From positions 41,974,001 through 42,038,000 of the forward strand of contig CM059446.1 in assembly GCA_030390025.1 (NCBI GenBank): DNA of 64,000 nucleotides, written 5' to 3'. Shown one piece after another: positions 5,920 through 54,049 of the stretch (within the stretch, counting starts at the first letter, position 1; each line of letters starts with the position of its first letter). Source of the stretch: Squalus acanthias. Taxonomy: Eukaryota. Made by a program: the position numbers and the translations under genes. The notes beneath the pieces were generated by a model. That model made no database searches. It was not told the DNA's origin and was given only the letters and a program-made list of their open reading frames with translations.

Positions 5920-6143
5920 ATGTCTCTTCATCTCCCCCTTTGTTCCTTTATCCCCTCCCCCTTTTCCCAGCTTTACCCTGGCCTTAAATCTATTTGATTT
6001 CCGGCTCTTCCCAGTTCTGATGAAAGGTCATCGACCTGAAACGTTAACTCTCTTTCTCTCTCCACGGATGCTGCCTGGCCTGCTGAGTTTTTCCAGCGTT
6101 TTCTGTTGTTATTTCGGATTTCCAGCATCCGCAGTATTTTGCT
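5920..6143 (+). mobile_element. Penelope-like element terminal (pLTR) remnant, family A
   Basis: Contains a hammerhead core followed by GATGCTGCCTGGCCTGCTGAG...TTTCCAGCATCCGCAGTATTTTGCT; closely similar copy at 47388-47640. Confidence 0.75.
6013..6049 (+). ncRNA. Minimal type-I hammerhead ribozyme motif
   Basis: Helix I AGUU/AACU, core CUGAUGA, helix II AGGUC-AUC-GACCU, GAAA, palindromic helix III ACGU, cleavage triplet GUU. Confidence 0.75.
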
Positions 6144-31996: not shown

Positions 31997-34066
31997 GGAC
32001 CCAGTCGGAAGTTTGTTTTTTCTACCTCACTGCCTCTGCACAGCTTTCTGGACTCCCACCTCACCTCACCCTTCACCTAGCTACACACAAGGAGCAGTTG
32101 GTAAACTGGTAGCTTTTTGCTTCGAAGCGCATCAGGGATTCAGGCGGCCGAGTGCAGTAAATATTGACAGCAGCTACCAAATAAAGTTAAAAAGTGAAAT
32201 ATAGGCTACTGAAAATTACAGTCTACTCTTTTTAAAGTTCGAATTATCTGACAATTCAAATTTATTTCAGCACTAAAATTAACTCATCTCTTCCTTTAAA
32301 ATTATTGGATAATTCCAGTAAGTGTTAAAATTGACTCGATCAGGACTATACTGTGGCTTCAAAGTAACTAGAAAGCCTCTTTCACGTCCCCCCCCCACTC
32401 CCCTGCCACGTGTTACTCAGCAGAGCTCACTACTAAACATACAGTAACTAGCCAGGACTCCCACCATCCGAGCCATGGGACCATCCATGAGCAAGTGTAC
32501 ATTCAATGTGCTTATATTTAAAAGACAGACTACGGAGTACTTCCATCTCATCAACTCACAGAATGAGCATTTTCTATTGCAAACACTATTTTTTGAGGTA
32601 ATAAAAAGGATCTTAAAATGGGTTTAAACAGACAAGATAAACCAATCTTCCAGTTGTAGTAAACCTCCCGCAGGAGAGAGTGAGGCAGACTGTTAAGGTG
32701 GGGTGGGGGGGGGGGGGGGGGGGGGGGGTCAATGGGTTAAATGTCGTCTAGACAACAGTGATGTGAAGCGCTAATGTATCTTGCAGGACATTTACTGATT
32801 GCTCTTCTGCACCAGCGACGATCAGCCAAGCAAAAGCCGACTGAAATGCAACGGAAAAACAACCTTCAAAACATGGAGGACGAGCACATCACTAGGTGAA
32901 CATCCAGCAGCTTACAAAGGGGACTTTCGTACTGCACAATAGAATTATACTTATCTTACGGACCGACACAAACCAGAGCCCCGAAACAATTACCACCACT
33001 GCACTGAATTTAAGAGGAAGTCAGCAGCGTAGCTGCTTAGTACAGGACTTAAAACCAGTGTACAGAAGAGGGTCAAGATAAATCAGATTCTCCAATTGAC
33101 TCCACACATCATCTGAAGTACTGAATTGAAAAACCTCTCTCAATGAAGGAGGAGAGATGTAATCGTGGTCAGTCACCACCGGAATTACCAAACGTGTGTG
33201 AACCAACACTTTTTTTTTTGTTTTAAAAGGGGAAAGTCTAGGGGGAAGACTATTTTCTTCAATGGATTCTTCAACTTTTTCTTTAAAAAAAGTGTCTATT
33301 TTCCTCCCATCATTGGATACCCTCAAGTAAGAGCTCCTGCCAGGCTACAGGAGACATCGGAGAGCAGCTTTTCAGAACTGAATGGGGCAGAAGGAAGGAC
33401 ACAACTGTAGTCGAAGGCCCAATGACAGAAGGCCACACTATAGGCCTCTGAATGCAAATTCCACAGCCCATAGCATGGTTTTCCAGTTCGCCCTGGAATA
33501 GTCCTTAGATCTTTGACCTTGCACCCAGGCAGGTTCGAACAGAAACTCAAATGTATTGGCCATCCCTTACCAGCGCAGCCCAGGAGGGAGGGAGACCCCA
33601 CTAGAGGGTCTCCAGGTCAGCAGATAAATTGGAGGAGTTTGAGGGCATGATTTCCTACCCACAGCTACAAGGCAACTTCATGTCCAAGTAGCAGCCCTCT
33701 ACTGTCCAGGCTCAGATTGAGAACGGACATTTGAGGGCTATTCAATCACAGGGGCCACATCAAAGTCCAATCCGAATTAAGGAGAACCAAACAGGCTTAA
33801 GGAGAACCAAAGGCAGAGGCATCTCATATCGTAATAGTGCATGGTTTCTTTTTTAAATAAAATATGCTTAGAGTCACAGGATAATTAAATCAAAAATCAT
33901 GTACTGAATAGGAACATAAAATCGGAGTTACAGCTACAGGCACAAAATCAAAAGTATCCGAAAAAGTAAAAGCTCAATGTCCCAAATGGTCATTATTATG
34001 GACTTACATAAATCGAGCGAAGGCAGTATTGGAGAACAGTCAGTGTCCTGCTTCCGATTTACTTAC

Positions 34067-34219
34067 CACTCTTTTTTCTCTAAAATCTATGCCAACTGTG
34101 GTGATGAACTTGGAGTTGAATTTGGCATCGGTGTATTGATAGAGAAAGCTGGTTTTTCCTACTCCTGAATCACCAAGTGCTAGGAATTTGATGAGGTAAT
34201 CATATTCTCCATCAGACAT
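34067..34219 (-). CDS. RAB27A: Ras-related protein Rab-27A, coding exon 1 (ATG; P-loop GDSGVGKT, switch I)
   Basis: ATG at 34219-34217; encodes [51 protein letters not shown]; donor GTAAGT at 34066-34061; acceptor AG at 34241-34240 with a polypyrimidine tract, giving 20 nt of 5' UTR in this exon. Confidence 0.97.
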
Positions 34220-35299
34220 AGTGAAAACTTAATGCTGACCTGCAATAAAAGAAAAAAAAATGGTTTCAAATAGGCTCTGACCAAGAAATATGTAACCAGA
34301 CTCTTTCCCCATCACCCCTTTAAAATACATAGTCACTGGTTTTCCCCTTGATACTTGAACAGTGGCACCTCCATTATCCACCCGAACAGAGGACCAAGGG
34401 TGGAGAATAGCAATTGGCAGATAATGCAGAGTTCAACAGTGGAGACGAGGATAACACAAAGAAACTGTATTCAGTTTTTCTTGAGCAGTGAAGTTGATTG
34501 ATAGCAGAGAGCGAACGTCATCAGTAGGCCAAGTATCTAGCACGGAGAGATGGTGCCGCCAGTTACCTGGCTTCAAAACACAAGGGCCTGGAAATTAATC
34601 TCCGGTGGTGGTGCAGAACGGGCTGTATCGGCTCGGCCACCCGTTATACGCAGTCATTGTTGACTGCAATGGAGCCGACCATCAGGCGCTGCGTATCTCC
34701 ATCGCCATCTCCAGAGATGAATTCCTAGACCAAGAACTCTCCGTAGCAAGTTTACTTTTCCATCATCTTTATGTCGAAAAGCACCACAGCTGCCTAAAGG
34801 CGACATGCCAGCAACAGAGTAAACAGGAAAACACTGGAAATACTCAGCCGGTTACACTCGAGGCATTCCCAACCACGGGCATTAAAATCCCAGTCTCGAG
34901 AGATAATCAAATACAGAGCCCTTTGGGAGGCGGACATACTGCAGCGTGTCACCATGCATCAGGTGACTGCCCCATGAGTAGCCATTCAGACAAAGTGCAA
35001 CATTCTTCTCCAGCAGTTACTTGTCACAAGTATAACTAACGCAACAGATGACATTTTTTTTTTAAAAAAGCAAGTCAAAACCTGTTGAACAAAAGCAATT
35101 ACTAATTGAAGATAAAAGTTTGGACACCTCGGCCTAAAACATTATTTGCAGCTGAAAGGATCGAGTTATAAAAAAGGAGCAGAGCCTTAAAGGCAGAGGG
35201 CGGCACAGAAAGCAAACAGCAGGCCACAAATCTAGCTACAAAAAAAAACCACTTCAGGTCTCCATTTCAAACTGCCATAAAAATACGCAACTATCAATA

Positions 35300-35545
35300 C
35301 TGAAACGGGCCATTCGGCCCCACCAGTTCGTGTCAGTGTTCACCCTTCACATGAGCAAATCGTTCCAATCATAGTCACCCACCCTGCTCCCAATTCCCTT
35401 CAACTCCTTTCTCCTTCATTTAAGAGATTAGTTGGGTGTATGTTTACAGTTTCTGCCTCAACCACGAACCACAGCCTCACAACTCAAGAAGCTTCTCCTG
35501 TCCCTTGTTGTAAATCTCTTACATTTAACCTTGTATCTATGTATT
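35300..35545 (-). mobile_element. Degenerate CR1 3' fragment
   Basis: GAAACGGGCCATTCGGCCC is the reverse complement of the CR1 terminal GGGCCGAATGGCC; TGCCTCAACCAC also present. Confidence 0.6.
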
Positions 35546-36224
35546 CCATACCTCGAGATACAACCTAGTATTAGATTAGATTAGTTTTCAGCTTTATTAA
35601 CCCGAGGCGTTGCCTTTAATATGTTTGGTAAACTGGTCGGTCGCTCGCGTGCCCCCGCCCCTCCCCTCCCCCGTGTAAATATTCTACAGGATAATGCACA
35701 GATCTTGAAGCTACTTTCCCTGTCCAGTGATTGCTAATGACCTCCTCCCTATTCAAATATTTGAAGACTCTCCACCACAATAGTGAGTCATTGGTTGGGG
35801 ATCAGAGGCAACACCTCTGGCTTTGTAAATTAGTATTTTTGTCCCAATTTAAACGTGCCTCCATAACTGGTGGGCATTTGACCCTCCAAAGTAGACAATT
35901 TAAGTTTTAATTTTCTTCGCTTCTGTGACAGGTTTGTATAATTGGTCAAGACTTTATCTAATTTCTTTAGAGTATTCACAGGGGCATCCACTAGAGCTGG
36001 TCTGTTGACATAGCTGTACATGTTTGGAAGGCATTGTACATCAAAATAATTGACGGTTTGCTTGCTGTGGTATGTGGGGAGAAAGAGTGGCAGTGTGTTC
36101 TTCGCAGTGTTTGGGCAAAAGGTGTTATGTTAATTCCTCATCTCTATTGTGTAGGTCTGGTAAATGATTTTACCAGAATGTTTCTTGGTGAAAAGACAAG
36201 ATTCATTTAGCCTCTAGGAAAGGA

Positions 36225-36401
36225 TGCCGGTGTTGGACTGGGGTGGACAAAAGTGAGAAGTCGCACAACACCAGGTTATAGTCCAACAGCTTTATTTGAA
36301 ATCACAAGCTTTCAGAGCGCTGCTCCTTCGTCAGGTGAAGTCATGATTTCAAATAAAGCTGTTGGACTATAACCTGGTGTTGTGCGACTTCTCACTTTTT
36401 T
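36225..36401. mobile_element. Miniature Penelope-like insertion with inverted terminal segment and 12-bp TSD (family B)
   Basis: TSD TCTAGGAAAGGA at 36213-36224 and 36402-36413; perfect 56-bp inverted repeat 36249-36304 / 36344-36399; homologous to 37877-37995 in opposite orientation. Confidence 0.82.
36302..36338 (-). ncRNA. Minimal type-I hammerhead ribozyme motif (same strand as RAB27A)
   Basis: Minus strand UCAC CUGACGA AGGAGC AGC GCUCU GAAA GC UU GUGA: helix I UCAC/GUGA, helix III palindrome AGCU, triplet CUU. Confidence 0.7.
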
Positions 36402-36654
36402 TCTAGGAAAGGAACCCAAGATATATTTCTTCATCGCTAGGTGGAGGCCTTACATCATCCAGATTGGAAGATGTCCCAAGAGAGAGGTTTTACCACAACC
36501 GAGGCACTACCTTTTTGCTGCTAGCATTGAAACCTGCACTCCATATTACCGTTTATAAAACCCAACATTCTGTTGCCCTTTTTCTATCTGTACTCCAATT
36601 CAGGGAATTACGTATTTGAACTCCTAGTTCTCTTCATCCACATCTTTCAATTGA

Positions 36655-37035
36655 GCCTAGACCCCCAATTTCTGGTCTTTCCTCCCAAAATGTATTACAT
36701 TACACTGATCCACATTAAATTGCATCGCCACCTGTCAACCCATTCCACTATACATGCTTTGGACTTGTGCATAGAACAAAAGGTGAACCCAGCAGTGACC
36801 CAGCAGTACACACTTCCAATCCTTCCCCAGACCAAGCAACGCCAATTTACTCAAACTCGGTTTCTTGTTCGTCAAACCAACTTTCTATCTATGCTGCTAT
36901 ACGTCCTCTTCTACCATATACCAGAATTTTAATAAGCCTCTTAAGACACTTTATTAAATGCTTTCTGGAAATCCCAGTATGCTACATCTACACATTCCCT
37001 TTATCGCTCCAAAATTAGTCACTTCTTTCATTGAG
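36655..37035 (-). mobile_element. Degenerate CR1 RT fragment
   Basis: Reverse complement encodes VDVAYWDFQKAFNKV-like and WRCNLMWI..HFGRK-like CR1 RT motifs. Confidence 0.6.
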
Positions 37036-37699
37036 GAATTAATCTGAGCCCCATTCCCCCCCCTCTTGAAGATTCTACGTTGTTTGTGGACGAGAGGTGA
37101 ATAAGTTAGCAATAGTCAAGGCTTTTTACATGGTCATGGCATAGCTTGGGGTAGGGTGGGAGAAAGAGAAAGGAGAAGAGGTGATACCATCAGGTAACTT
37201 TGGAGTTTCTATTGAACAGCTGGGGCTTCAAGGTCGTGCCTAATCCGAATAGGTCAACACGCACCATATTTGATAAGTGGTAGCTGTATGGTCAGATAGT
37301 AACTTTTGTGGAGCATCTGACCTATCTTCACATTCTTCTGATGACCTGAATCCATTCACTCTCGGCATGTTGGCTGTTCATTGCTTCAGACTGGGGTGAG
37401 AGGACTAACAGGTTGTTAAACAATAAAAAAAGTTGCACAATACAATAAACTGATCCTGTTGAACAATAGAAATCAATGGAGCACTCCAGGGGCAGTGAGC
37501 GAGACAGAGCGAGACAGAGAGACCCCCTGCAAATATCGATGGGGCCGAGGACCCACTTCCAAAAGAGAACATCAGATACTCAAGAGGAACATTGTGGAAC
37601 CATTGAAGGAGATGATTTTATTTATTTTAAAGTAACGTGCATCAGAGAATGTTTTGGAAGGATGGAATATTGTAGCATGTTAAACAATACATTATTGTC

Positions 37700-38006
37700 C
37701 ACCTCATTGTCTTTGATGTAATGTTTTCCTGACTGACCTGTTTGGACACCATCCACACCTTTGATTGCCGTGATTATCTCTCTGCCGAGGTGTGATAAAG
37801 GGCAGTTAGAAAGATTAACTGTAATCATCTGGCAGTGTTCTCTGACTATATATGCTGTGCCTATATGCATCTCTTCACTTCACCTGACGAAGGAGCAGCG
37901 CTCCGAAAGCTTGTGATTTCAATTAATCCTGTTGGACTATAACCTGGTGGTGTGCGACTTCTCACATTTGTCCACCCCAGTCCAACACCGGCATCTCCAC
38001 ATCATG
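37700..38006 (+). mobile_element. Penelope-like element terminal remnant (family B)
   Basis: Hammerhead core followed by CTGTTGGACTATAACCTGGTG...GTCCACCCCAGTCCAACACCGGCATCTCCACATCATG; homologous to 36223-36340. Confidence 0.78.
37880..37916 (+). ncRNA. Minimal type-I hammerhead ribozyme motif
   Basis: UCAC CUGACGA A GGAGC AGC GCUCC GAAA GC UU GUGA: intact core, perfect helix II, AGCU palindromic helix III. Confidence 0.78.
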
Positions 38007-38579
38007 AATACATTATTCAGTTCTGATGTGTGTCCCTTTGAAAGTGAACAGTCTAATTGAAAAGTAAACACCAGTTGAGTCCATAAGAGGTCAGTTAAAG
38101 AGAGAGGCTGTAGATATTGTGGATCCAGTATCTTGTGTTCCTTGACCATCTTTTGAGACACAAATGTGCGTTATACTGACATCTGATGCACAGGACGTGC
38201 ATGTGCATACATACTTAACAGTCCTGTGTACATCTACAATAAAGCTTTCCGCATTAGCATCACATTCATGTTGCATCTTAAAAACAAATAGTATTGCTAA
38301 GTTATCCACACGGATTGTCTCAAATTTTCCATTTTTACCAAATGTGCACCAAGCAAAAACTAGTCTCATTCAGTACACGGGCAAGAAAAGCAAACTAGCA
38401 ACCAAAAAAAATCACTGAAGCTACAAACCAGCATGCATCACATCTAACCAAAATTGCTCAATATCACCCCGCTATCTCTCGCTCTCTCCTGCTGGTCCTT
38501 TGATGTGCCATATTTCACTGTACCCTTCATTTGCCCAAAAGTTCAATTTTTACCATAATACAATCAAAATGACAACATT

Positions 38580-39010
38580 GGCACACATTGGGAAGCTAGC
38601 TTCCCTTGTATAGGTGCACTCTCAACCCACCTAACCCCCCCACACCCAAAAATAAATTCTGGGGCTGGTGTCGTGTTCTTTTCCTAGATTCTTCAATTGT
38701 GGCAGGAGGTTCGAGCTCCCATTGACAACCAGAATAATTATTTATACACAAACACACAGGCACATTTTGAGTTGCAATATATGCCCCCAGAGTGCAATGA
38801 CTGAGGGACAACTGAGTGAGATGCATCATGGGTACTGGAGGAGAAACTACAATACCCAGAGTGCAGTGTGACAATTTCTATCACATGACACAGAAAAGGC
38901 TCCTTCCACTGGGCAGGAGGTGTTCTAGTGCTGAGGTTTGAGATGGAGCACTGGGGGGGTTGTAGTTTCCATCCATCTCCTGTGAAACTACAGTCCTCAG
39001 AGTACATGGT
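38580..39010. promoter_or_regulatory. Cluster of ZNF143/THAP11 (SBS, ACTACA) like motifs plus M-box; candidate promoter/enhancer
   Basis: ACTACAATACCCAGAGTGCA (38846-38865), TACCCATGATGCA (minus, 38822-38834), CCCCCAGAGTGCA (38784-38796), ACTACAACCCCCCCAGTGC (minus, 38948-38966), ACTACAGTCCTCAGAGTACA (about 38987-39006), TTCCCAATGTGTG (minus, about 38582-38594); TCACATGAC at 38881. Confidence 0.5.
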
Positions 39011-40426
39011 AACAACCCGGCAGAAAGGAGACATAAGCGACAGAGGAAAAAAAAAATCTTAAATAAAACGTTTTGAAATTTTCTTCTGTTAAATAACAAT
39101 GGAAGGTTAAGTGTTGACCTTATTTTATGGCCCACTGAAGTCAATGGAGCACAAAAATCAGCCTGGGTGCAAAATGGACATCTGACCCAAACCTGTTCCT
39201 ACCAGCCCGCTAATGTTAAATAGAGGCCAACAATATGGAGACATTTGTATCTTTCAGCATCAGTAGTCTAATATTTTTAAGCTGTCAGTCGTGTATTGCT
39301 TCATTAAGTGTCGAGTTTGAGCAATAAGCAAACTACTGCCACATTTAGGCTGCTACACGGTTTAGCCACAGAAGTTGCACGCCCGCTCTCAGACTACCCA
39401 GTGAACAGCAGCAATGGTGACCGACTAACATGCGCTTTGACAAGCAAAAAGCAGCAGGGGAGTATGGCATCAATTTTGCTCCCAAAGTAAAACAGTCCAA
39501 TCCAAGTTAGGTGCTAGAGGCTGGAAGAGGACAGGAAATGTAGGCATGTCGCATTCACTGGAAGAGGTTAGGGGAGAGCTCAATGAGCTCCTGTCCCATC
39601 ATCTTAAACATCCCACTGTAGAGTGGTCAAACCCACAGAGGTTGGTAGATTTTACAGTCCATCAAGTTGTACTTGCTCCTGAAAAAACAGCTGCATTTAT
39701 TCAGATTCCCAAATAATCCAGTTACATGATGTAAACTTGAACTCCATAAAAACCCTATTTAGGTCATTGATCATTTTAATTGCCTTTCAATACAGACTAG
39801 GAGAAAACAATAAAAAGAGCAATTCAGAGTATGACAATCGTGCATTTAGAATACAATTTTTATGCAGATAACTTAGAAAATGGGGCTTATACAACAGATA
39901 TAATGGTGACAGACGCCACATGTCTGATGTTAGCTGCCGTTGCTAGATTACCAGTAGATTAGAATAAGGGAACCCCTCTCAAGCTCGGCAATATTTGAGT
40001 GTAGGAATGGGTTAACAGCAAAGGCTCAAAATAACTGCTGGAAACAAAATGGTTCAGATTTGGGGTTTTAGATTTATGAATATTTCCCAACACCACCCAA
40101 GACAGGCCAGGCAGAACAGCCCACAATCAATATTGCTCAACACAAGCACCAATATTCCCCTCAGAGGACCGGACCAAGTCTCAGGCACCCCCAACTCAGT
40201 TCTAGCAGGCCAAGTCAGCAAGTTAGACTAAAATGATGCAAGGAATTAAAGAGTAGGAGGCGTTCCAATGGATTCGGACTCTGCCACTCAAGGTACGTAT
40301 GGATAAAGTCAATGTGGATGAGTGTTCAAGATGACAAATGTGGTTTTCACACAAGTTGTGCAGGGAATGGAAGCCAAAAATAGGGCTTCATGAACAAAAA
40401 CACTGCACGTTGGAGGGGATTCCATT

Positions 40427-40600
40427 ACATAGAATTTACAGCACAGAAACAGTCCATTCGGCCCAACTGGTCCACGCCAGTGTTTATGCTCCACATGAGC
40501 CTCCGCCCACCCCCATCCTTCTATTCCTTGCTCCCTCATGTGCTTGTCTAGCTTCTCCTTAAATGCATCTGTGCTATTCGCCTCAACTACTCTTGTGGTT
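40427..40600 (-). mobile_element. CR1 3' end
   Basis: CATAGAATTTACAGCACAGAAACAGTCCATTCGGCCC is the reverse complement of the CR1 tail; ORF fragment VVEANSTDAFKEKLDKHM. Confidence 0.8.
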
Positions 40601-43480
40601 TCCTGGTGGTGCATTTGGGCCTTGGAAGCACTCATTTTATGAACTACTCCCCCGACAGACCCAGTTAGACAGACATCCTGGACTGGGTGTCGCTGCCATC
40701 AGTGTGTGGCTGGTATCAGAGTGCGGCTGGTATCAGAGTGCGGCCAATGCGCAAAAGAGAAGGGCAGCAGTTAGCGTGTCTGTCTTCTGCCCTCTTTACA
40801 TTAGTGGCGTGGCTAACAGCAGCTCTGCAGTACAGGGCAGCACAGCACCATCGCTGCCAGGACTTCCCCCTCCCTCAGCTGGCGAAGAATCATTTTTGTA
40901 AGAATCCACTCTGGCCACCAAAGACCAATGCCCAGAAAAGAAGTCATAATCCAAACTTTTAAACAAGTACAAGCTTGAAGAATGGTCACTTGGCCAAGGT
41001 ATGAAATGGCCACTTGTGCCTGTGGAATCGTATTCGGTGAGTAACTCGCATAAGGTATAAAGAATTTTTTTTTTTTTTAAATAAATGAGCGGAGAACAGC
41101 ACAACTTTCCAATCAAATTGAAGGTAAACTTGAAGCAAATGCTATCTGGAGAACAAACCGGAAAGGTTGCATTGTGCAGTTGAGCAGAAACTGACCTCAA
41201 TATTGTGCTGCGTCTAAATTCCTGAACATTCAGGGCTTCAAACAAATGGTACCAAACTAGTCACCTTAGCCAAACCAATGTACCAAAACAGTGCCCGTGA
41301 AAGCCATCACCACATTCCCTTCTCCAAGAGCGTCATCTCTAAACAGTTTCAAATTTGTGCCATTTCAACTTGTTTAAAATGCCAGAGTACATTTGTTCAA
41401 AAAAAAAACACCCTAATTCACAGCAACCTCAGTACCCAACTGCTGCATTCCAAATACATCAACACATTCTACACGCCAGGGCACAAAACACCCGGTTGGC
41501 ATCCCATGCTGATAAACTGCAAACCACTGCTGGCACTTAAGGAGTTAAATCCTTGAAAACTGCCCAAGCACACAAGCCCGTGAAATAAAAAGCATGCGCA
41601 GGCAACAGCAATATTTCAAAACTTTTTTTTAGAAAGATTAAAAAGTAAAAGCATTGTAGAGTGGTTAACAGGGGAAAAAAGAGAGCCTGGGATTTTGGAG
41701 AACTAAAAACCACCACGTCGTAACATTCAGTAGCTCTTCTTCCAACATTCAAACCCATTCTTACCTGCAGTAGTTCTACAGATTAAGATTTTGTTCAGGT
41801 TAAAAGTAACTCGGCTCAGCCTGCAGCAGCACTTTTACCAGCTCCACCTGCAAGGCACACAGCATTTTAGCTTACGTGTCAATGTTTGCATTCGGTCAGG
41901 AACTTCCTGAAATGAGGCGTGGCAGCTACGAGTGTAGTGATGGAGGATTAAGGTAAGTGGCAGGTTTTAAATTACTCCACTGCCCTAAATACCATGAAAC
42001 ATTTCTAAGCGTTAAAAAGAACCATTGGAGACGGATACCTGGATTTAGCGAGTGAGCAAAATGAATGCAAAGCCAGAGGAAAACAGCTTGATAGGTTTTA
42101 AAAAATAAAAAATAAAAATCTTTGAAACAAACATTGGATTGAGTTTGAGTGTAAATGTGATAATTTGAGAGATTGTGAAAAAATTGGTCAAGAAAATTGT
42201 GCTCACAATCCCAGATGAAGAATGGTTTACTAATCCAATTGCAACATCTGGAGGCCAATAATGTGACACTGGAGCACCTGGTGTGTGAAAGCACCTCAGG
42301 CACTAGCTCCTCATATTTTCAGGCATGCTCAATGTGGACCCAAAGCTCTGCCTGCACTTCGTGCTTCTGTGTGCAAGGCTCATTAAGAAGGCCCCCATAA
42401 ACTGGACATGGCTCAAAGGCCCCCATAAGCGATTTGACTTAGCAGGCTTTCCCATAAAGCATCGGGAGCACCCATGTGGTACCACCCTTCCATTTTTCAA
42501 TTTGGTCCCAAATCCTCTTTCCACATCTAACCATTCAAGTCCCAATCTGGCAAAGGAAAGATAGCAACGTTCAGGCAGCCAGCATCCCTTTCCATGGCTG
42601 CTGGTGCCCAAAATACCAGCTCCACCCCCACTCCAGACATTCCCAACCTGCTACTCGCCAGAAAAATATTGAAGTGAGCGGACGTTGCATTATATGGGGA
42701 GGGGGGGGATCAGCTTGTTCATGTGCAGGTCCACTTGACCTGCACTAGTCCTGACACGGATAGTGGAGTGGGGACCTCAGTGTCAGCAAACACTTCCAGG
42801 TCATGGCCAGTTGCAGAATAAATTTCTAACTGTGCCCCAATAATCTACCTCAGCCTTTACTTCAAGGTGGATTTTCAGTGAGGTCGGATTATTTGGTGTG
42901 AAATTGGGCCGGGGGTGGTGGCTTCTGTATGTACTGTGGGCCTGTACTCACTAGGAACTGGGTTTAGGATGTCTAAGTTTACTTCACAAAAGGACCCAAG
43001 ACATTAGAAACACGAGGCTTCCAATAACAAAGCAGTATGTGCTGTATTCAAACAGATCCCAGAGCATTCCAACCCATTGCACCTTCAGGGACTTTGGAAA
43101 TCATGAAACCCTGGCAGTCTCCTGGCACAGCCTTTAAGGATCCAAATACTGGAATATTTACTTCAACTAAAAAAAAGTGAGCATGCTGTTTTAATGAAAA
43201 CAATCTTAAATGTTAAAGTGGTTTATACTGATCCAGCGTCTTAATGGATTATTTTAAGAAAAAAAATTGCTTTTGCCAATTTGAACAAAGCAAACTAATT
43301 TTGTGACCAGGCCAAATTATTACAAGTCCTGTTTAATTTCACAGCTGTTACATTATCAAACATCTTCAAGTACTTTATTTGTGGTGGGGGGGGGGGAGGG
43401 AAATAAAGGGAAAGAGGACAGAGGGTCACGCAGATAATGAGCTGGAGGTGAAGACAGTCAGGTGGGGAGACTTAAGGCGC

Positions 43481-51670: not shown

Positions 51671-51689
51671 CAACCTAACCTACCACTTC

Positions 51690-52880
51690 ACTCCTCCACT
51701 CCCCGGGCCCGTGCTCCACTCCCCACCAGACTCCTCCACTCCCCGGGCCCGTGCTCCACTCCCCGGGCCCTTGCTCCACTCCCCGGGCCCGTGTTCCACT
51801 CCCCGGGCCCGTGTTCCACTCCCCACCAGACTCCTCCACTCCCTGGGCCCGTGCTCCAGACTCCTCCACTCCCTGGGCCCGTGCTCCAGACTCCTCCACT
51901 CCCTGGGCCCGTGCTCCAGACTCCTCCACTCCCCGGGCCCGTGCTCCACTCCCCGGGCCCGTGCTCCGGTCCCCACCAGACTCCTCCACTCCCCGGGCCC
52001 GTGCTCCAGACTCCTCCACTCCCCGGGCCCGTGCTCCAGACTCCTCCACTCCCCGGGCCCGTGCTCCGGTCCCCACCAGACTCCTCCACTCCCCGGGCCC
52101 GTGCTCCACTCCCCGGGCCCGTGCTCCACTCCCCGGGCCCGTGCTCCACTCCCCGGGCCCGTGCTCCACTCCCCGGGCCCGTGCTCCGGTCCCCACCAGA
52201 CTCCTCCACTCCCCGGGCCCGTGCTCCGGTCCCCACCAGACTCCTCCACTCCCCGGGCCCCTGCTCCGACTCCCCGGGCCCCTGCTCCGACTCCCCGGGC
52301 CCCTGCTCCGACTCCCCGGGCCCCTGCTCCGACTCCCCGGGCCCCTGCTCCGACTCCCCGGGCCCCTGCTCCGACTCCCCGGGCCCCTGCTCCGACTCCC
52401 CGGGCCCCTGCTCCGACTCCCCGGGCCCCTGCTCCGACTCCCCGGGCCCCTGCTCCGACTCCCCGGGCCCCTGCTCCGACTCCCCGGGCCCCTGCTCCGA
52501 CTCCCCGGGCCCCTGCTCCGACTCCCCGGGCCCCTGCTCCGACTCCCCGGGCCCCTGCTCCGACTCCCCGGGCCCCTGCTCCGACTCCCCGGGCCCCTGC
52601 TCCGACTCCCCGGGCCCCTGCTCCGACTCCCCGGGCCCCTGCTCCGACTCCCCGGGCCCCTGCTCCGACTCCCCGGGCCCCTGCTCCGACTCCCCGGGCC
52701 CCTGCTCCGACTCCCCGGGCCCCTGCTCCGACTCCCCGGGCCCCTGCTCCACTCCCCACCAGACTCCTCCACTCCCCGGGCCCGTGCTCCACTCCCCACC
52801 AGACTCCTCCACTCCCTGGGCCCGTGCTCCAGACTCCTCCACTCCCTGGGCCCGTGCTCCAGACTCCTCCACTCCCTGGC
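51690..52880. repeat. GC-rich compound minisatellite (VNTR)
   Basis: 23 perfect 21-bp units CTGCTCCGACTCCCCGGGCCC (52261-52743), flanked by 20-bp CTCCCCGGGCCCGTGCTCCA units interleaved with 10-bp modules GACTCCTCCA and CTCCCCACCA. Confidence 0.97.
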
Positions 52881-54049
52881 CAGTATCCTGGACTAACTGA
52901 GCAACGCCACAAAAAGGAGATCTATTGATATGGAAAATGTAGGCATAAGTTTTTCTGTTAATGTTTGTTACACTGCACTAAACCTACCAACACTGGCCAG
53001 TAAATCCCCAGATGTGGTAGTACTGCAATTCTAATATCCACAGTTAAGCTATAATGGTGTCTACGAAGAGTGTAGAGACCTAAATAAGATGTAGCACAAT
53101 GATAAACTGGCCAATCAGCAAGCTTAAAAAAAAGACGATAAAATCCACCAGCATTTTAATACTGCTACTTATGTCTGAAATAGAAATTCAAGCCCAGAGA
53201 AAAATCTAAACCTTGGTAGAGTTGTGATGGATGTTTCCTCTTCGGAAGGCATTCACCGTCCTGGCACATGGCATTATTGTATCGGGCCCCATGTGCGGGC
53301 AGTGTTCTACCAGCCTGTGCTGATCCTCCATACTAGACAGAACGGCTACAATTTCATTTAATATTCTAGGTAGAAGTAAACAATCTTCAACCATAACGTG
53401 ACATCTAAACTGGAGAAGGTGTGGATGTTTATTTAAAGATAAGCACAGTTGTTGAAGCTGGTTACACCTTTTGTACATGAACTTCTATTTAAAAAAATTT
53501 TTAAAAATCAAACTTGAACAGACAGGATACAATTTCTACACCAGTTGAAAATACATCCAGGTAACTGTAGTATGTGAACCTACATTGTCCATCATCTTAC
53601 TTCATGTTATCCTCTCCTTTGTCGGCTATTCTTGTGCCACGCACCATTTCCTGCTCAAGAAAAAAATGGCAGGCTGGACTTCTATTAAAGTGGGCACAAG
53701 TACAACTCTTCCACTTACTCTCCCTCCAACATCTGGCCTCAACACACTATTCCCTCCAGCACCCAAAGATCTGAAATGGGTTCGGTGAAACTTCTTCCAA
53801 GGGCTCTTCAGCTAATCAGTGTTCCAACTTATTTATTACAGGCATAAACTGCATTTAACAAGGAGCTCAACAGGCCTTTAGGAAAGAGCTGCCACATTAG
53901 TTACAAGCCAAGTGGGAATCACAGATTTTGGCTGGATTAGGCACTCAAGGCCCCATCCCCCAGCTCTACAGATTAGGCCTTCAGCTGTTGCTAACCAAAA
54001 GGTAGGATGTTGTCATTGGTAAAGACTGTTTAACTGAGCAATAAAAGAC

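Follow-up and report, generated by a model that had tools for sequence, protein, structure and literature searches.

A 64,000-nucleotide stretch of the genome of the shark Squalus acanthias (assembly GCA_030390025.1, contig CM059446.1, positions 41,974,001–42,038,000; hereafter called the "window") carries, at positions 36213–36413, an insertion that forms a hairpin with a hammerhead ribozyme in its loop. This is probably a mini-insertion from a high-copy Penelope-like element (PLE), built from two complementary DNAs (cDNAs) joined head to head, one likely reaching the capped start of the element's RNA and the other ending 1 nt from the predicted ribozyme cut. The original prediction had explained the same structure by reverse transcription of a self-cleaved RNA followed by a template switch. 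The structure that it described stands, whereas the template switch is unnecessary and is disfavoured by differences between the two arms of sister copies.

Structure of the insertion

A 12-bp target-site duplication (TSD), TCTAGGAAAGGA, flanks the insertion on the left (36213–36224) and on the right (36402–36413), and the insert between the two copies spans 177 bp (36225–36401). An inverted-repeat search delimits two arms of 56 nt, 36249–36304 on the minus strand and 36344–36399 on the plus strand, which are 100% complementary to each other with a spacing of 39 nt. The resulting hairpin fold has a z of −14.2, and 0 of 200 shuffles were equally stable. When positions are counted from +1 of the element's RNA, which lies at 36341, the paired part of the forward arm covers +38 to +93. 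This arm continues into a one-sided "tail" (36225–36248, minus strand), of which 24 nt are kept: its outer end lies at about +117 to +119, short of the usual family tail end at about +129, at the start codon of the element's open reading frame (ORF). The inverted arm is tail-less, and two extra T residues stand at its outer end (36400–36401, plus strand).

The loop is occupied by a minimal type I hammerhead (36305–36341, minus strand), with the core boxes and architecture described in PMC4209133, and by a 2-nt non-templated linker, T and G on the minus strand (36342–36343). Here and below, published systems are cited from the accessible portions of the papers. The minus strand reads UCAC-CUGACGA (36334–36328)-stem II-GAAA (36313–36310)-GCUU^GUGA, in which 36338–36335 form the 5′ strand of stem I and the palindromic AAGCUU lies at the cut side. 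Thus, CUGANGA, GAAA, NUH and stems I and II, which define a minimal type I hammerhead, are all present. The scissile bond is predicted between 36306 and 36305, and both arms extend to 1 nt 3′ of this bond (36304 and 36344), where the inverted arm starts. The TSD and insert length, the perfect arms, the minus-strand hammerhead in the loop and the start of the second arm within 1 nt of the predicted cut are all as originally described.

The same layout is common in the family, with a TSD in 115 of 122 hairpins, 12–13 bp long in 82 of the 122. Since inverted arms, a one-sided tail and a TSD also make up the published PLE layout, the build of the 36213–36413 copy is ordinary for its family, and the copy itself is very likely a dead and inert mini-insertion.

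The main hotspot of arm starts

Where on the element's RNA do the arms start? As the mapping reference, we used a solo copy of the same family with a longer pseudo-long terminal repeat (pLTR), which lies at 37691–38006 on the plus strand, 1.3 kb from the hairpin, and is 95% alike. It contains TATATA at 37847, +1 at 37877, the hammerhead core at 37884 and the full tail, and is a ready test substrate. The tail-anchored sample consists of the first 100 tail matches listed, corresponding to 99 distinct copies from several subfamilies in the first 9.6 Mb of contig C1, and 58 of these 99 have an inverted partner within 40 nt. The 5′ ends of the arms were mapped automatically, with a few ends misplaced by several nt. 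Among the 136 truncated arms, 45 start in an 8-nt zone around ACTTCAC (+1), 7 nt ahead of the catalytic core, and 5 in the 3-nt zone at the cut, while 36 further arms of the same sample continue upstream. Counted by hairpin, 30 of 58 have an arm starting in the zone around +1. Moreover, TATATA is found at −30 to −34 in 22 of the 24 long reference arms. Rotifer pLTRs are described as having a TATA box and an initiator-like TCACT motif (PMC3846280), and the Penelope of Drosophila virilis as having an internal, TATA-less promoter (PMC2377424).

In the template, +1 is preceded by C, or by T in some subfamilies. Genome-wide, the base found before +1 is G in 2,817 cases, as compared to 1,448 for A and T together. 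Of the 100 places listed for each class, we inspected 91 with G and 30 with A/T: read-through from upstream accounts for 0 of the 91 G arms and 12 of the 30 A/T arms, and the share of G among the non-C junction bases is about 76%. An inverted partner is missing from 18 of the 91 G arms, and the G of loci L243 and L291 stands beyond the TSD. In addition, 25 G-class hairpins carry a short non-templated linker ending in G, which is TG in 15 of them. In L1 and SVA, the accepted sign of cap copying is an additional G at 5′ ends that are complete (PMC11702581, PMC3287187). The +1 hotspot is likely to be the capped start of the element's RNA, although the partner arm could supply the G at many ambiguous G junctions, which weighs against this assignment.

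The forward arm of the 36213–36413 copy opens with G-ACTTCAC (36342–36335), where the template reads C-ACTTCAC. TG is followed directly by ACTTCAC, and the hammerhead-bearing arm therefore appears to have been copied from uncut RNA, the G of the linker presumably representing the copied 5′ cap. For this arm, the earlier idea that the copy records a ribozyme-cleaved RNA does not hold. Four other loci (L190, L191, L196 and L198) share one identical junction, in which the partner ends in stem II and a TG linker leads to +1; either this join is favoured, or the hairpin itself may have been copied.

The +1 hotspot could instead mark a splice boundary, or a point at the outer margin of the folded hammerhead where the reverse transcriptase (RT) stops, with the peak at the cut reflecting an RT pause. 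The hotspot does lie only 3 nt ahead of stem I, and the 5′ end of helix I coincides with the end of an intron in D. virilis (PMC4209133). However, AG precedes +1 in 0 of 24 references, and no constant upstream exon is present in the 18 solo G copies. The spacing of the TATA box and the G bias, which by hand tallies is absent at internal stops, also argue against this explanation, and we consider it highly improbable.

The minor hotspot at the predicted cut site

We designate an arm start exactly at the predicted scissile bond as cs0, and the neighbouring positions as cs+n and cs−n. Arms were counted when they started exactly at a position, with two non-template letters in front. Genome-wide, 368 arms start at cs0, as compared to 65 at cs+3, 99 at cs+1 and 157 at cs−2; the cs+3 control has a filter probability equal to that of cs0, with an anchor two letters longer. 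After correction for the filters, the respective numbers are 1,029, 182, 252 and 255. These whole-genome counts overturned the view, based on a hand tally of listed matches, that the cut site is unenriched. If the RT paused as it entered stem I, starts would accumulate at cs+3/+4, where the counts are lowest. We classified 71 cs0 arms from 70 loci by hand: 41 are precise, 22 are microhomology joins of the GTGA type, 3 are ambiguous, and 5 are read-through or complex cases. The precise class scales to about 590 arms genome-wide, 2–3 times the controls, to which no microhomology correction was applied.

Moreover, the partner arm also starts at cs−1 to cs+1 in 12 of the 70 cs0 loci, mostly without microhomology. 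Among the hairpins with two short arms, such double-cut pairs account for 12 of 19, versus 2 of 10 in the control loci (Fisher p = 0.05; binomial against uniform, 5e-5). Locus L328 has a build identical to that of the 36213–36413 copy, but with the start exactly at cs0.

Several observations weigh against a cleavage signal. In the hand tally of the 100 listed matches, the starts are widely spread and do not peak sharply at cs0 (11 arms at −1, 7 at 0, 11 at +1, 7 at +2, 7 at +3 and 8 at +5). The cs+1 position does not exceed cs−2 (252 vs 255 corrected); palindromic junctions, like that of the 36213–36413 copy itself (C at −1), can be lost to the two-letter filters, and cs+1 may therefore be undercounted. 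The partner lies at cs−1 to cs+1 in only 1 of 71 G-class hairpins, and short arms tend to pair with short arms at control positions too. Furthermore, the accessible account of an Anolis PLE reports no RNA reads ending at the hammerhead cut, and cleavage is not needed in vitro (PMC11167929). On balance, we lean towards regarding the cs0 peak as a genuine cleavage signal, whereas the use of a cleaved template for the short arm of the 36213–36413 copy is close to an even call. The predicted enrichment of junctions at the CUU site is thus borne out as a real but minor excess at cs0; cs+1 is not above its control, and the dominant fixed point lies elsewhere, at +1 with its extra G.

The template-switch account, in which a single cDNA runs to the 5′ end of a hammerhead-cleaved RNA and then switches, so that cleavage sets the junction of the 36213–36413 copy, can draw on the position of the short arm 1 nt from the bond and on the family peak at cs0. 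One arm also lies at cs+1 in 7 of the 12 double-cut loci, which makes the loss of a last base plausible. Nevertheless, the hammerhead is complete and uncleaved in the other arm, whose start falls on the main hotspot and has an extra G. A switch between sense RNAs would be expected to yield tandem, not inverted, copies, and cs+1 is level with the cs−2 control. Together with the arm discordance described below, these points make a template switch quite unlikely.

One template or two

In order to compare the two arms of each hairpin, we used 217 hairpins, which were gathered by several patterns and do not constitute an unbiased sample. A fold-back should yield arms that match except for later mutations, and the background difference between arms is 54 of 3,350 sites, CpG included. 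Above this background, the recurrent alleles are discordant between arms in 16 of 202 hairpins at one site, in 6 of 93 at the base before the cut, and in 20 of 73 in loop II, and six hairpins are discordant at two recurrent-variant sites. In loop II of many loci, an additional A or C recurs at a single position and is discordant between arms in about a quarter of the hairpins, making this position a possible slippage hotspot of the RT. Moreover, two arm types end at fixed 3′ points, at about +91 and about +129. In vitro, a PLE protein with a predicted dimeric form nicks both strands and extends each of them, and its two internal initiation sites define the tail (PMC11167929). Because of the arm discordance, the two fixed 3′ ends and these in vitro data, two cDNAs joined at their 3′ ends constitute the simplest model, and two separately primed cDNAs are favoured over a template switch or a fold-back.

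The comparison also yields evidence on the other side. Deep subfamily markers nearly always agree between the arms (discordant in 0 of 93, 2 of 93 and 0 of 172), and the discordance of the recurrent alleles is far below that of independent draws (0.53, 0.21 and 0.67). The arms therefore come from the same young pool, often perhaps from the same RNA. Some of the discordance could come from mutable sites, RT slippage or gene conversion, and the arms of the 36213–36413 copy are identical to each other.

If a single template, possibly antisense, were copied by self-priming or fold-back, the junctions would follow palindromes or microhomologies (here TCATGA; elsewhere, the GTGA of stem I). Self-priming on an antisense template was proposed for the head-to-head junctions of Adineta Penelope (PMC3846280). 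The identical arms of the 36213–36413 copy, the 22 of 71 cs0 arms joined through GTGA-type microhomology and the concordant deep markers would fit such a process. In contrast, the two distinct fixed 3′ points match the two RT start sites, recurrent variants are discordant between arms, two at once in 6 hairpins, and the extra G, together with the solo copies starting at G+1, requires a sense template with a defined 5′ end. We therefore judge a fold-back origin unlikely. In two loci (L375 and L419), the junction linker consists of short stretches taken from the beginning of the PLE ORF, suggesting a third priming or capture event further 3′ on the RNA.

Proposed mechanism

In the two-cDNA model, two short cDNAs would be primed on both strands of one staggered cut, and then joined head to head. 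The template would be the first ~130 nt, the 5′ untranslated region, of the element's own RNA polymerase II transcript, with the TATA box at −30, the start at ACTTCAC and the ATG at the end of the tail. The forward arm likely runs to the capped RNA start, with the G as the copied cap, while the short arm would halt 1 nt from the predicted ribozyme cut. Family-wide, a minority of the templates (on the order of 1% of arms, by a rough estimate) would be the 3′ product of hammerhead cleavage.

In a more specific form, to which we give somewhat less than an even chance, a protein dimer would copy two RNAs at once. Most of these RNAs would be capped, and a distinct class would have been mutually cut via a dimeric hammerhead, with both arms at the scissile bond. 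If true, this would provide in vivo evidence of PLE hammerhead cleavage within the transposition complex, and would supersede antisense self-priming as the model of head-to-head insertions.

The hairpin insertions are likely a fossil record of how PLEs copy themselves, and if this more specific form is true, they would form a genome-scale map of the 5′ ends of germline PLE RNA. Capped RNA ends are expected at ACTTCAC, and 5′-hydroxyl ends at GUGAUUUC. The two-cDNA model also makes the testable prediction that one insertion can hold arms from two RNAs. The PLE mechanism is of wider interest, because no other reverse transcriptases are as closely related to telomerase as those of PLEs.

The source family

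Exact genomic matches number 21,367 for a 31-nt segment of the hammerhead region and 32,980 for a tail segment of equal length. Three loci (L400, L401 and L402) represent sister subfamilies that have the tail in common with the hairpin family. L402 has the arrangement pLTR-ORF-pLTR, with a match to RVT_1 (E = 2e-9, Pfam), and the ATG of its ORF lies at the end of the tail. A GIY-YIG-like C terminus, with a VVY...YIGET motif recognized by eye, is present in L400 and L401, while Pfam gave no GIY-YIG match at E ≤ 0.01. In all three, a C-x4-C-x2-C linker precedes the endonuclease. Judging from these predicted proteins, the source family is an endonuclease-bearing (EN+) PLE, and the Penelope-like origin suggested earlier is upheld by the pLTR, the tail, the TSD and the sister copies flanking the RT ORF. 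A CX2-5CxxC linker between the RT and the endonuclease marks the Neptune clade (PMC8557442). By this Cys linker, the shark family is a putative Neptune-type PLE.

L402 is an almost complete element: an inverted copy of part of the ORF stands upstream, and its endonuclease region is frameshifted. In the flanks of L001–L030 and L400–L407, many copies lie inside RT sequence resembling that of long interspersed nuclear elements (CR1/L2-like by eye).

We rejected two other identities for the insertion. A non-LTR retrozyme would not fit, as there are no tandem hammerhead units, and a single inverted pair lies between the TSD copies. A miniature inverted-repeat transposable element or microRNA hairpin was likewise discarded, since the junctions vary among copies and the score for MIR821 is far below the gathering threshold. 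MIR821 is the sole Rfam match to the hairpin, driven by the hairpin itself (63.5 bits vs a gathering threshold of 249). The Rfam scan gave no hammerhead match, and no Rfam model fits the minimal hammerhead.

The hammerhead and the host gene

Four PLE-type hammerhead cores, at 6017 (+), 37884 (+), 47512 (+) and 36334 (−), were chosen by eye out of 12 loose motif matches in the window. The cores at 6017 and 47512 belong to another PLE-like family, with a different stem II and 3′ side. As previously noted, only the core at 36334 shares the strand of a RAB27A-like gene, whose first coding exon (34066–34239, minus strand) lies about 2 kb downstream of the insert. The best Protein Data Bank matches of this gene are to Rab27A (E = 5e-28, versus 9e-26 for Rab27B). 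The exon starts at 34239 behind a polypyrimidine/CAG acceptor, and the ATG is at 34219, 20 nt past the acceptor. As the acceptor before the ATG is clear, the insert probably sits in a 5′ intron of the gene. Contigs from four putative RNA runs over 33000–42000 contained no exon joints, and such contigs are uninformative on starts or strand. No CpG-island-like promoter was found upstream of the coding exon in the window, except for a GC-rich tandem repeat near 52 kb.

Could the hammerhead act as an intronic ribozyme on the RAB27A pre-mRNA? It lies in sense orientation, and the exon that follows about 2 kb downstream has a clear acceptor; to this extent the suggestion that it could be present in the pre-mRNA holds. 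However, the predicted fold gives stem I a pairing probability of 0.0006 within the hairpin, at a cost of 4.9 kcal/mol, as compared to about 0.85 in the solo neighbour with its 4-bp stem I. The complementary arm is transcribed ahead of the hammerhead in the minus-strand RNA, and in the pre-mRNA the ribozyme is predicted to be kept locked by the 56-bp stem. In addition, U replaces C at core position 11.1 (36314), so that the G10.1-C11.1 pair is absent; among the matches listed, U11.1 occurs in 3 of 100 copies and C in 97. Stem III of such hammerheads needs a partner RNA (PMC4209133), and the copy is one among at least 21,367 near-identical ones. We give practically no credence to a functional intronic ribozyme at this locus, and any ribozyme effect on RAB27A is very unlikely.

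Elsewhere in the window, GC-rich tandem arrays with a 21-nt perfect unit and 10-, 20- and 30-nt units occupy 51674–52896, upstream of the RAB27A-like coding exon, and a further short repeat of very high copy number, sharply delimited in the mapped contigs, lies at 40424–40592.

Comparison with known systems

The head-to-head layout, the tail, the promoter motifs and the hammerhead are already known for PLEs. The head-to-head insertions of EN+ PLEs (PMC3846280, PMC8557442) resemble the shark insertion in the inverted, 5′-truncated copy, the one-sided tail of 30–40 bp and the TSD, and also in the TATA box, TCACT-like initiator and hammerhead of the pLTR; the shark copy is minimal, and lacks an ORF. 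While self-priming on an antisense template was the published explanation, the shark data favour two sense-templated cDNAs ending at the RNA start or at the cut. The metazoan PLE hammerheads of minimal type I (PMC4209133) have the same core boxes, an extra base after position 9, a palindromic helix III remnant and a predicted dimer. The 36213–36413 copy differs in its G10.1-U11.1 combination and in being trapped in a 56-bp stem.

Outside the PLEs, L1 and SVA (PMC11702581, PMC3287187) likewise show the extra G at complete 5′ ends, and two primers on both target strands give an inversion with a clean TSD. However, L1 twin priming copies different parts of one RNA, whereas both shark arms copy the same 55–90 nt, near the 3′ side of the RNA. 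The non-LTR retrozymes (10.64898/2026.07.22.740005) are also PLE-derived, non-coding and equipped with a type I hammerhead, but they form tandem repeats and are thought to move via circular RNA, in contrast to the single inverted pair, TSD and copy-variable junction of the shark insertion.

In the literature searched, which included few subscription papers and no supplements, we found no report that maps PLE junctions to a cap or a cut, or that describes discordant arms. The accessible portions of PMC8557442, PMC3846280 and PMC11167929 state the role of the PLE hammerhead and the origin of the head-to-head insertions as open. The family statistics make both questions directly testable, by a named start site with a cap signature and a 2–3-fold excess of ends at the cut. 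An experimental counterpart is the in vitro target-primed reverse transcription of Poseidon_Ac (PMC11167929), with its two internal RT start sites defining the tail, the nicking and extension of both strands and the predicted protein dimer. In Poseidon_Ac, the ORF begins inside the hammerhead and, in the accessible account, no RNA ends were seen at the cut, whereas in the shark family the ATG coincides with the tail end, the Cys linker is of the Neptune type, and genomic ends peak at the cut.
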